Source: Eledone cirrhosa (Eukaryota). Taken from it: a stretch of DNA of 64,000 nt. This document shows positions 4,766 to 62,714 of this stretch, in pieces (position 1 is the stretch's first letter; each line of letters opens with the position of its first letter). The DNA lies in the NCBI GenBank assembly GCA_964016885.1, contig OZ024742.1, positions 289,726,001 through 289,790,000 of the forward strand, read 5' to 3'. The notes below the pieces were generated by a model. It worked only from the letters and a program-made list of their open reading frames with translations. It had not been told where the DNA came from and searched no databases. The position numbers and the translations under genes were made by a program.

Positions 4766-5067
4766 ATATATATACATACATATATACATAAATGGAATAG
4801 AATGAAACGAAATTTCATTTCTCACTCTTAGTACGGCACTTACTTAAATGTAAGTATGTATGTATACGTACATACATATATGTATACAGACGTACAGTAG
4901 CATGTATATATATACATACAGGCACACATATATATATGCACGTATCAGTTTACCGAACATTTATTATAATGCTCGGTTTGTTCGTTTGTAAACAAACAAA
5001 CAGCCTGAATTACGCCGTACAGTGTTTAGGCAACCACGTCACCTTTTTGTTCAACACTGACACAGGA

Positions 5068-5110
5068 ACGATGTACTAGTTTCAAGCTTATTAGCTATCA
5101 TCAGCACCGT
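5068..5110 (-). ncRNA. Minimal type-I hammerhead ribozyme
   Basis: acggtg CTGATGA t-agct-aata-agct-t GAAA c-ta-GTA catcgt; 6-bp stem I, palindromic stem III. Confidence 0.8.
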
Positions 5111-5662
5111 ATACCTTTCTGCCAGATGGTTGAACGTCCGAAAGTATATACTTTCCTTATGAAAATTAACGGCTGAGCAGCCTAATTTGCATATCGAGTG
5201 AGTTCAGTCGGCCAGGCGCACCGAAAACGATAAATGGAATAGAATGAAACGAAATTTCATTTCTCACTCTTAGTACGGCACTTATTTAAATGTAAGTATG
5301 TATGTATACGTACATACATATATGTATACAGGCATACAGTAGCATGTATATATATACATACAGGCACACATATATATGCACATATCAGTTTACCGAACAT
5401 TTATTATAATGCTCGGTTTGTTCGTTTGTAAACAAACAAACAGCCTGAATTACGCCGTACAGTGTTTAGGCAACCACGTCGGTAAACTGATACGTGCATA
5501 TATATATGTGTGCCTGTATGTATATATATACATGTGTGCCTGTATGTATATATATACATGCTACTGTACGTCTGTATACATATATGTATGTACGTATACA
5601 TACCTACTTACATTTAAGTAAGTATATACTTTCGGACGTTCAACCATCTGGCAGAAAGGTAT

Positions 5663-5705
5663 ACGGTGCTGACAATAGCTAATAAGCTTGAAACTAGTAC
5701 ATCGT
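5663..5705 (+). ncRNA. HHR variant with core lesion (CUGACAA)
   Basis: Inverted copy of the 5068-5110 HHR with G8>A. Confidence 0.6.
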
Positions 5706-5951
5706 TCCTGTGTCAGTGTTGAACAAAAAGGTGACGTGGTTGCCTAAATACTGTACGGCGTAATTCAGACTGTTCGTTTGTTTACAAACGAACAAACCGA
5801 GCATTATAATAAATGTTCGGTAAACTGATACGTGCATATATATATGTGTGCCTGTATGTATATATATACATGCTACTGTACGTCTGTATACATATATGTA
5901 TGTACGTATACATACATACTTACATATATACATACATATATACATATATAT

Positions 5952-7442
5952 ATCATCATCGTTTAACGTCTATCTTCCACGCTAGCATCGGTTTAGACGG
6001 GAATTGTCCCACTTGAGGCAAGATTGGTTGTCTTGCTCGTATAGAACTGTCTGGCAGGTTTTCTACGGCTGGATGCCCTTCCTAACACCAACCACGTTAC
6101 AGTGTGGACTGGGAGGGGTTTTTATCGTGTTACCTACACGGCCACAATACAGCGTGGACTGTGTGTTTTTTTGTCGTGACACCTACACGACCTCATTTAT
6201 TTAGGACTGGATGTTGTGGTACCAACATAACTTTACAGAGAAAGGGGTGGTGTTGATGAGGGTGTGGGAGGGGGTGTATATTTGATTACTGACTGTAGAT
6301 TTTGCTTTGTACTTAGGCAAGGCGGGTCTTCTGTATTACTGCGGAGTGCAGTAGAGGTGTAAATGTGTAAGATCGGAATTTATCAAATCGTCCCAGGTTT
6401 TTCTGGGTCTGCCTACTCTGTAACTTCTGTCAATTTTGATCACCCTGCACTTTTTTATACAGCTGTCGTCTTTCATGCGCATCACGTGACCATACCAACG
6501 TAGTCTTCTCTCTTATACCTAATTTCTCACTTAGTTCCTTTATGCTTTGTTGTTCACGTATATTACTATTACACATCCAGCAGAGTATGCATGCTTCGTT
6601 CCTCTCCAGTCTGCGCAGATCCTCTGCACACAATGCCCAAGTCTCACTGCCATGTAACATAGCTGTTTGTATGCAAGCATCATACTGTCAGCCTTTCATT
6701 TTTAGAGAGAAACTTTTAGTGGCCAATAGTGGTTGGTATAAGCTCTCTGAACTTTTTCCATCCCATTCTGACTCTGGCTACTGTACTTTCTGAGCACCCT
6801 CCACCACTGCTGATTTTGTCACCCAGGTAACGGAAGGTGTCCACTATTTCTATAGAGCCATCTGGGCAATAGAAGGAGCTAGTATCCTGTGGGCGCTTGC
6901 TACTTATTGCACCTGAGCACCGGCCACATATAAAATCTACGTTCTTAGATAGCTTACCTGTGATCCCACTACATCTTTTATGCACCAATACTTTGCATTT
7001 GGGACATAAAATGGAATTTCTGCCTACTCCTTTCCTACACACTGAGCATGGCCATTTCCCAGAGGGGACCAGTGTCCTATTTTCCTTAAAGTACTAGCAC
7101 TTTAGTCTTAGACAAGTTAACTTTAAGGCCTTTTGATTCTAGGCCATGCTTCCATGTTTGGAATTTCTTCTCTAGTTCAGCCATCAATTCAGCTATGAGA
7201 GTTAGATCATCTGCATAGAGAAGTTCCCATGGGCAGCCAGTCTTGAACTCCTCTGTTATAGCCTAAAGGGCAATAATAAATAGGAGGTGGCTAAGGACAG
7301 AGTCCTGATGAACACCAACTTTTACGCTAAATTCTTCACTATATTCGTTGTTAATTCTAACCTTGATAACTATTTCTTTATACATGGCTTGTATAGCTCT
7401 CACAAGCCATTCATCAACCCCTTGTTTTCTAAGGGCCCGCCA
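5952..7442 (-). mobile_element. RTE LINE 3' fragment, degenerate
   Basis: (CAT)n tail at the left end; PHD-like, YLG and HGSETWAL motifs on the minus strand. Confidence 0.9.
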
Positions 7443-7504
7443 GATACATACATATATACAATTGTTTCACCTTAGCGGATCCTCAGCTCGTAATGGACAT
7501 GGTT

Positions 7505-60899: not shown

Positions 60900-62040
60900 A
60901 TATACATATATATATACATATATATATATATACACATATATATATACATATATATATATATACATATATACATATATACATATATACATATATATATACA
61001 TATATATATATATACATATATATATACATATATATATATATACATATATACATATATACATATATATATACATATATATATATATACATATATATATACA
61101 TATATATATATATACATATATATATACATATATATATATATACATATATATATATATACATATATATATACATATATATATATACATATATATATATATA
61201 CATATATATATATACATATATATATATATACATATATATATATACATATATATATATATACATATATATATATATACATATATATATATATATATATATA
61301 CATATATATATATATACATATATATATATATATATATATATACATGTATATATATATACATATATATATATATACATATATATATATATATATATATATA
61401 TATATATATATATATATACATATATATACATATATATATATATACATATATATATATATATACATATATATATATATACATATATATATATATACATATA
61501 TATATATATACATATATATATATATATATATACATATATATATATATACATATATATATATATACATATATATATATATACATATATATACATATATATA
61601 TATATACATATATATATATACATATATATACATATATTTATATATATATATATACATATATATATATATACATATATATATATATACATATATATATATA
61701 TATATATACATATATATATACATATATATATATATATATACATATATATATATATACATATATATATATATATACATATATACATATATATATATATACA
61801 TATATATATATATACATATATATATATATACATATATATATATATACATATATATACATATATATATACATATATATATATATAAATATATATACATATA
61901 TATATATATACATATATATACATATATATATATATACATATATATATATATACATATATATACATATATATATATACATATATACGTATATATATATATA
62001 CATATATATATACATATATATACATATATATATGTACATA
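60900..62040. repeat. (TA)n/(TACA) compound microsatellite, ~1.1 kb
   Basis: Direct reading; similar tracts at 21695-22020, 37100-37333, 38030-38595, 39964-40441 and 40922-41530. Confidence 0.95.
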
Positions 62041-62083
62041 TCATCATCATCATCATCATCGTTTAATGTCCATATATATATAC

Positions 62084-62382
62084 ATATATAGACAATATCC
62101 CCCCCACACCCCTCACTGGAATGTGGTCGTGGAGGTGCCACGGCAAAAAAGCACCCAGCCCACACTGTAAAGTGGACATGTAGGCGCCACGAAAAAGCAC
62201 CCAGCACACACTGTAAATGAGGTTGGTGTTAGGAAGGGCATCCAGCTGTAGAAATCAAGCCAAATCAGTTCTTGTATGAGCAAGGCATGGTCAGCCGACC
62301 AGACACTGCCCACAACAGGACAACCCGTCTAACCCATGCTAGCGTGGAAGAACGGACGTAAAACGGTGATGAAGATGATGAT
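62084..62382 (+). mobile_element. RTE 3' UTR fragment
   Basis: Matches 60604-60899. Confidence 0.85.
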
Positions 62383-62608
62383 ATATATATATACATATAT
62401 ATACATAATTATATATACATATATATATATATACATGTTGCCAATAAGAAACACACGCACCAGTTGCTTTCACTTCAATTTATTATAATAAATTTATAAA
62501 TTTCCGGTTGGTTGGTTGGTGCCTCTCCTTTGTTCTGTCCTACGCCATCAACAAGATAGCGTAGGACAGAACAAAGGAGAGGCACAAAAACAAAGAAAGG
62601 AATCCCCA

Positions 62609-62651
62609 GTCACTGAAGAGGTCACAGAATGTGTGACGAAAGAACTCTGAC
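62609..62651 (+). ncRNA. Type-I hammerhead ribozyme in a nested fold-back insert (62437-62712)
   Basis: gtca CTGAAGA g-gtcaca-gaatg-tgtgac GAAA g-aa-CTC tgac. Confidence 0.78.
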
Positions 62652-62714
62652 AATATATAAACAATCATCTGGTTGTGGAACCAACCAACCAACCGGAAAT
62701 TTATAAATTCGTAA

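Follow-up and report, generated by a model that had tools for sequence, protein, structure and literature searches.

Hammerhead Ribozymes of an Eledone cirrhosa Genomic Window as Probable Ends of Penelope-Like Elements, One Family of Which Carries a U4A Core

Introduction

What are the hammerhead ribozyme (HHR) motifs that crowd the TA tracts of a 64,000-nucleotide (nt) stretch of the Eledone cirrhosa genome—assembly GCA_964016885.1, contig OZ024742.1, positions 289,726,001 to 289,790,000, hereafter the window—and which elements put them there? An initial annotation had described type-I HHR folds in seven unrelated sequence contexts and attributed them to non-autonomous elements mobilized by Penelope-like elements (PLEs), whose pseudo-long terminal repeats (pLTRs) typically hold such ribozymes. 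In this report, we propose that the motifs are very probably the pLTR hammerheads of at least seven coding PLE families, together with four non-coding tandem units that likely borrow the enzymes of such elements. Elements of this kind, including retrozyme-like units, are already known; what is new is the density of the ribozymes and a core change, U4A, that extends across one whole family.

Results

Hammerhead folds in the window

The first finding is that the window motifs are predicted type-I hammerhead folds. Our descriptor combined CUGANGA, a stem II of at least 3 base pairs (bp), GAAA, a stem III of at least 2 bp, UH and a stem I of at least 3 bp, and dinucleotide shuffles with three block sizes (n = 600) served as control. 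Six window loci (−5104, +22607, +25452, −37394, +42018 and +62613), all three-stem type-I HHRs with CUGANGA, GAAA and UH cores and open at stem I, satisfy this descriptor. Shuffled windows gave a mean of 0.055–0.08 matches and a maximum of one, so that 0/600 reached six and the predicted enrichment over shuffled sequence was confirmed. Permitting one core change brought in −56130, +5669 and +19285, and a plain scan counted 17 CUGANGA...GAAA pairs. None of the 150 Rfam matches listed out of 216 for the window was a hammerhead family, the top ones being microRNA models matching TA hairpins, and minimum-energy folding did not return a hammerhead for most of ten motifs.

Four of the seven contexts singled out by the initial annotation pass the descriptor, and the other three have intact cores with weak or bulged stems. 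At 7505 (family B), a 2-bp stem II and an altered stem I put the window copy below the stem limits, and an undamaged copy is found in L195 (L numbers denote fetched genomic loci). At 38683 (family E), stem I is 2 bp long, as it also is in four genome copies, and at 42836 (family F) there is an internal loop at the base of stem II. The copy at 5663, which had been counted among the intact folds, is in fact lesioned (CUGACAA). The motif at 20592 was rightly called lesioned, both window copies being damaged, but the family itself has a complete HHR whose stem II is long and branched. A palindromic stem III was found in six families, but the families of 37350/42012, 20592, 36923 and 19285 have an ordinary 4–6-bp hairpin. 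Family K (19285/23288) was absent from the earlier list.

The features of the window, including predicted element ends, are as follows.

4788..5480, minus strand: family A non-coding unit, partly repeated in tandem every 442 nt; intact HHR, C3 at 5104
5481..5928, plus strand: family A inverted piece; lesioned core CUGACAA at 5669
7458..7572, plus strand: family B stub with inverted arm, HHR (C3 at 7512) and tail; pLTR of a Hydra-type coding element
18713..18935, minus strand: family H stub (pLTR of a Neptune-type element) with damage to the core near 18835
19183..19358, plus strand: family K stub; HHR fold with core CAGAAGA (U4A) at 19285
20314..21290, minus strand: family J non-coding unit and inverted piece, period 513 nt; long stem II, both window cores damaged
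22018..22733, plus strand: family C non-coding unit with inverted 5' piece, period 520 nt; intact HHR, long stem II, C3 at 22607
22845..23352, plus strand: family K stub with inverted tail, core CAGAAGA at 23288; pLTR of a Hydra element
25309..25690, plus strand: family A, younger subfamily; intact HHR, C3 at 25452; period 420–422 nt in other loci
25741..25895, plus strand: family G stub, damaged, lacking the 5' half of the core
36923..37099, plus strand: family G palindromic stub; HHR 3' half, its inverted copy, tail
37335..37575, minus strand: family D inverted pLTR piece; intact HHR, C3 at 37394
37576..37860, plus strand: family D protein, C-terminal GIY-YIG piece with one stop codon; 96–99% DNA identity to full-length copies
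37861..42145, plus strand: family D microsatellite-rich 3' untranslated region (UTR) running into pLTR and tail; intact HHR, C3 at 42018; broken by other insertions
38579..39251, minus strand: family E stub in a TA tract of family D; core at 38712, 2-bp stem I; pLTR of a Neptune-type element
42361..44086, plus strand: family F non-coding unit, partly repeated in tandem with a period of 1,303 nt; HHR C3 at 42841; cut by the assembly gap
44087–44286: assembly gap of 200 N, interrupting the family F tandem
54709..54904, plus strand: family G palindromic stub of 193 nt, lacking the 5' half of the core; Hydra element end
56010..56235, minus strand: family H stub, core UUGAUGA at 56130
62435..62709, plus strand: family I stub whose tail is inverted, with an intact HHR (C3 at 62613); pLTR from a coding element that has a cysteine linker and GIY-YIG

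Families with coding parents

The second finding concerns the origin of the inserts. In other genomic copies of families B, D, G, K, E, H and I, a reverse transcriptase (RT)/GIY-YIG frame lies directly upstream on the same strand, which argues that their short window inserts are truncated ends of coding elements. The 11 window families would then comprise seven coding ones—four of the Hydra clade, two Neptune-type and one unplaced—and four non-coding ones. The earlier link to PLEs is borne out by these 7/11 families, where such frames adjoin the HHR ends, whereas the non-autonomous status given to the inserts suits only the four remaining families (A, C, F and J). The families are multicopy, as expected, in 8/8 cases searched by DNA or by pattern, and copies of the families of 7505, 22601, 18802 and 62609 occur in fetched loci. 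The tie to TA tracts also held in a blind sample of 40 stretches of 10 kb at round coordinates (399.8 kb; small and not strictly random), in which 24 of the 33 HHRs have a (TA)5 tract within the next 250 nt downstream, compared with 20% of random positions.

Full-length copies run pLTR-HHR, short tail, single RT plus GIY-YIG frame, 3' UTR and pLTR-HHR, while the commonest copy is a short 3' stub in (TA)n with an inverted piece lacking the tail. The pLTRs, partial tandems, inverted 5' pieces and optional tail are those of endonuclease-positive (EN+) PLEs, and insertion into (TA)n is that of the Hydra clade. Family D provides the clearest case. A search with its GIY-YIG C terminus returned 150/150 scored genomic matches at ~98%, several of them in 758-amino-acid (aa) frames, which are bounded by HHRs in L036, L038, L039 and L041. 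Since the window copy has a GIY-YIG piece between two HHRs and full-length relatives elsewhere, it is predicted to be a coding element that is truncated at its 5' end and bears an inverted pLTR. The family D protein (P0001, 758 aa) is a single RT frame with a C-terminal GIY-YIG (YRDD and YIG) and has the Hydra motif set: RWR, DKT, CNCLNKEAC (CxCx5C), CDLC (CxxC) and CMH (CxH), the last two on either side of E and N, with no CCHH. Each hallmark motif is present in 113–119 of the 120 homologues listed out of 1,183. Pfam gave P0001 a weak GIY-YIG match (E 0.015) and no RVT_1 match, and by eye its segments match Hydra rows of the alignment in the PMC8557442 supplement. Its microsatellite 3' UTR measures 2.4–3.7 kb, with a repeat spacing of 4.5–6 kb.

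Similar evidence was obtained for the other coding families. Family K shows the order HHR-frame-HHR in L203 and L208, and the tail of family G continues into a Hydra frame in L211, with further upstream frames in L284–L286; the frames of both families have RWR, DKT and Hydra-type ends, with cysteines damaged in single copies. Family B, with frames upstream in L143 and L195, is Hydra-type by similarity. Family E (L267, L270) has DKG, a CSRPRCNTC linker, a GIY-YIG domain with C, C, H and H residues and a C/A-rich 3' UTR of 1.4 kb, whereas family I (L145, L147, L282) has a CIDKKCITC linker and GIY-YIG that do not separate Neptune from Nematis. For family H, an endonuclease frame lies upstream in L163 only, where the endonuclease part alone is seen. 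We had tied first family J and then family H to the Hydra frame of L195, and rejected both because that frame belongs to family B. The family H core UUGAUGA (U3 with G8) is found at two separate loci (56130 and L117/L195), most copies having C3. The tails of families D and G (42070–42145 and 37040–37099), both of which end in CGT(T)A, share the short motif TATTGAGTAC, which also occurs early in the family D 3' UTR (38015–38030); it is a possible protein-binding or RT-start signal.

Family K and its U4A core

The third finding is that family K has the core CAGAAGA (U4A) in place of the canonical CUGANGA. A search of the whole genome with an exact 29-letter pattern (controls, 0) found 20,778 copies with CAGANGA (A4) and 99 with CUGANGA (U4) between the same flanks. 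Every family K copy read across the 25 best loci is A4, as are 6/6 in the blind sample. The canonical share (99/20,877, or 0.47%) fits back-mutation at the mean copy divergence of 2.2% plus inversion junctions, which can yield U4 because TTCAGAA and TTCTGAA are reverse complements; taken together, these observations argue that the source elements carried A4. A distinct canonical subfamily is unsupported, as 4/12 canonical loci have the normal family K upstream letters and the rest begin at junctions. DNA contigs of four sequencing runs extend over the family K end. When all 27 single core changes were screened in the blind sample, U4A alone recurred as a family, the screen being blind to double changes (U3-A8) and to long or weak stems.

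Published data suggest what U4A would do. The phosphate between A6 and N7 (A6-N7) is a contact of U4 (PMC3088659), and in the CUGA turn every single mutant has low activity, only the C3-G8 swap being restored (PMC9901934). The passages of PMC3088659 on natural core variants do not include U4A, and the literature we searched, with most subscription journals outside it, held no report of a PLE family with a fixed U4A core. We therefore lean toward a family K ribozyme crippled by U4A, in which case the family was likely amplified in that state. Another explanation is that U4A is a working natural core, in which tertiary contacts linking loop II to the internal loop of stem I, or the element's own protein, rescue a cleavage that is still needed. 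The rest of the fold is indeed intact—a 5-bp stem I with a second helix past an internal loop, a 3-bp stem II and a 5-bp stem III—some natural variants show genuine though low activity (PMC3088659), and the ribozyme of the anole PLE is assisted by protein (PMC11167929). However, an intact fold is also expected after recent loss in one source element, CUGA-turn changes, single or double, were unrestored except for the C3-G8 swap, and the lowest-energy fold of the family K region is not a hammerhead, though the same is true of most of the ten motifs. We regard a working U4A as possible but rather unlikely, and a crippled family K ribozyme is the reading that we carry forward.

Family G and its C3-A8 and U3-A8 cores

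Family G consists mainly of 150–190-nt palindromic stubs without the 5' core. That core is present in 0/9 copies of the blind sample, which are predicted to be unable to self-cleave, and in 1/36 copies outside the family G searches (overlapping loci may double-count). Half of the latter set (18/36) begin 35–60 nt after C3, and these clustered starts may mark a transcript start or a stall within the pLTR. The parent has A at position 8 in all copies. A genome pattern that fixed C3 gave 1,450 exact matches, among which 94 of the 100 listed read CUGAGAA and 0/100 were canonical. Family G thus appears to have a compensated form, with the published covariant U3-A8 (PMC4209133, PMC3088659), and an uncompensated form, with C3-A8. 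In a tree of 30 copies, U3 occurs in three places among C3, the order of change being ambiguous in these short, partly chimeric sequences. Two earlier ideas were given up: that family G is a fixed palindromic element without a parent, rejected when the parent was found, and that its core is a plain G8A loss, revised because unselected copies show U3-A8. It may be speculated that A8, once edited A-to-I, would pair again with C3 (C3-I8) in the C3-A8 subfamily (e.g., L219:1395–1525), whose inverted copies would yield long double-stranded RNA.

Non-coding tandem units

Families A (5068/25446), C (22601), F (42836) and J (20592) are different: they are non-coding units of 420–1,303 nt in partial tandem, in which the sequence past the tail enters the next copy of the same unit. 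Their periods are 420–422 nt in 6/19 loci and 442 nt in the window for family A, 520 nt (563 nt in a relative) for family C, 1,302–1,303 nt for family F and 513 nt for family J. A frame 2.8 kb upstream of family F in L278 was considered as a parent and ruled out as a separate insertion. Because they show the tail, inversion and target of coding PLEs, these units likely use the enzymes of those elements.

These four families raise the question whether nearly all the inserts are independent non-autonomous retrozymes that spread via self-cleaved circular RNAs. The layout of non-long terminal repeat (non-LTR) retrozymes—head-to-tail units of a few hundred nucleotides with one HHR each—is that of families A, C and J, family F being longer, and the size and layout of family A agree with animal non-LTR retrozymes (PMC7229834). 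In addition, the 40 best family G matches are one 193-nt palindromic form, which could be a self-propagating subfamily. As a general account this is nevertheless refuted by the seven families that extend upstream into PLE frames. Moreover, family G stubs have many palindrome centers and begin anywhere between +42 and +138, counted from C3, as separate truncation events would give, and those of the blind sample lack the 5' core. We consider the retrozyme account of nearly all inserts improbable, and favor pLTR hammerheads of coding PLEs alongside four borrowing units.

Density across the genome

The last main finding is that the window is ordinary for its genome and the genome is unusual, as judged from the blind sample. 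The sample holds 33 matches in 21/40 stretches, against a mean of 0.575 in 40 shuffles, or 83 canonical HHRs per Mb (bootstrap 50–120). Extrapolated to the assembly of 2,996 Mb, this amounts to ~250,000 HHRs (150,000–360,000). For orientation, the axolotl, whose published count is given in the Discussion, has a far larger genome. All matches over all loci fall into 34 sequence clusters, 23 of which have at least two matches; overlapping loci inflate the match numbers and not the cluster numbers. A first-pass count gave 37,000–42,000 endonuclease candidates in the genome. Chance matches in AT-rich, repeat-rich DNA are an extremely improbable source of the motifs: the window is AT-rich and full of TA tracts and fragments of long interspersed elements (LINEs), a CUGANGA...GAAA match at 13188 lacks stems within LINE coding sequence and 1/33 blind-sample matches, in an (ATG)n tract, is likely chance, but the excess over shuffles in both the window and the sample, and cores that stay constant across families although the stems are rewritten, speak strongly against it.

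The searches also revealed further abundant HHR families with an AU-rich palindromic stem III and a long stem II (L026, L027, L030, L048, L200, L201 and others), several of which adjoin Hydra-type frames. Intact RT plus GIY-YIG frames of 905 aa and 887 aa from another PLE group are present at L046:6779–9496, with Pfam RVT_1 and GIY-YIG matches, and at L272:2287–4950. Elsewhere in the window, a multicopy 300-nt inverted-repeat element around a TA tract (7595–7900; four blind-sample matches), in which no HHR was seen, is either similar to a miniature inverted-repeat transposable element or a PLE end without a core. An 83-nt tandem array (48899–51184; 27.5 copies, 98% identity) adjoins 36- and 40/80-nt arrays. 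Many copies of one LINE family, which we take to be RTE-like, have RT frames of 530–549 aa and (CAT)n ends (33483–35075, 58561–60210 and others). A stretch resembling transfer RNA (32917–32974), slightly below the Rfam cut-off and within a repeated element, is probably a short interspersed element.

Discussion

The findings above suggest how the window came to hold so many ribozymes. In the mechanism we propose, following published work, the endonuclease would nick TA-rich DNA and reverse transcription would be initiated internally on the RNA, at one or the other end of the tail. Early termination and fold-back would then leave a stub that retains the HHR because the ribozyme is only 40–220 nt from the 3' end. 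Insertions would cluster, since several families carry or keep TA tracts that serve as targets for others, such as family E inside family D. Self-cleavage would not be required for multiplication, because family K apparently multiplied while carrying U4A, as did one family G subfamily while carrying C3-A8. We hold as an even call the broader claim that self-cleavage is dispensable in vivo, with a ribozyme-dead U4A Hydra family exceeding 20,000 copies amid dozens of families living side by side, a second family that passed through C3-A8 and the densest hammerhead population counted.

Several points weigh against this interpretation. First, no coding parent was found for families A, F and J (9–20 loci) or for family C (a handful of loci), and a parent may exist. 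The coding link of family H comes from one locus, and the proposed Hydra and Neptune assignments were set by motifs. Second, the mutagenesis was carried out on a protein-free type III ribozyme; since the anole PLE ribozyme cleaves only with its protein, U4A could be tolerated in the particle. The longest family K frame (713 aa among 150 scored) is 5'-incomplete, and the family, which looks older than family D, may now be extinct. Third, when family G parent copies were found without the C3 pattern, 5/8 were U3-A8 and 3/8 had the C3-A8 mismatch.

These questions bear on the role of hammerheads in PLEs, of which family K offers a direct test in nature. Should U4A prove to cleave, standard descriptors are overlooking a new functional core. 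As for the density, it suggests substantial under-counting both of animal hammerheads and of the proportion of Hydra elements in some genomes.

How do these elements compare with known systems? HHR-bearing PLEs as such, including Hydra elements in (TA)n, are already in print (PMC4209133, PMC8557442, PMC7229834). Craig et al. (2021; PMC8557442) described the Hydra clade, with (TA)n insertion, canonical HHRs and Hydra-1_Obim of Octopus bimaculoides, called the role of the HHR in PLEs unclear and raised the idea of a passenger. Our Hydra-type families share with that clade RWK/R, DKT, CxCx5C, and CxxC and CxH at the endonuclease end, as well as (TA)n insertion, an HHR near the 3' end and 5'-truncated inverted pieces. 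Published Hydra elements are shorter than about 3 kb, with CUGANGA in 26/26 rows of File S2, and differ from the long microsatellite 3' UTR of family D, U4A in family K and A8 in family G. The main text of a 2026 octopus repeat annotation (PMC13282606) contains none of the words "hammerhead," "ribozyme" or "Hydra."

In PMC4209133, many HHR families per genome are described, mostly truncated PLEs and with inverted pairs. Opposite-strand pairs 100–700 bp apart, palindromic stem III, the U3-A8 covariant and mostly single motifs are seen here as well, but about 2,000–9,000 motifs per genome were counted there against the 150,000–360,000 estimated here, and the first half of that paper reports no U4 change and no uncompensated C3-A8 family. 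Coral has >6,000 HHRs in 16 families, and the 126,247 of axolotl is the highest printed count that we found (PMC7229834). Families A, C and J resemble animal non-LTR retrozymes in being head-to-tail non-coding units of 420–520 nt with one type-I HHR (PMC7229834; bioRxiv 10.64898/2026.07.22.740005), and retrozymes have been derived from pLTRs (bioRxiv 10.64898/2026.07.22.740005). The units described here differ in having mostly 1.2–3 copies, PLE-style inversion and tail, TA tracts and, in family F, a length of 1.3 kb, and they are known from DNA alone.

Families E and H resemble Neptune clade PLEs in their linker before GIY-YIG (Cx4CxxC or a remnant) and a short ACGU stem III, and family E also in DKG. 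Family E differs in its 2-bp stem I and 1.4-kb C/A-rich 3' UTR, the placement being by motif only. A functional parallel is offered by the green anole's Poseidon element (Frangieh et al. 2024; PMC11167929), in which the HHR overlaps the frame start, the tail is optional and targets are AT-rich, as here. The purified anole PLE nicks AT-rich DNA and begins reverse transcription internally, at two sites located one on each side of the tail. The HHR of this PLE cleaves only with protein, and HHR mutants insert normally in vitro; for that in vitro dispensability, family K would be the natural in vivo counterpart.

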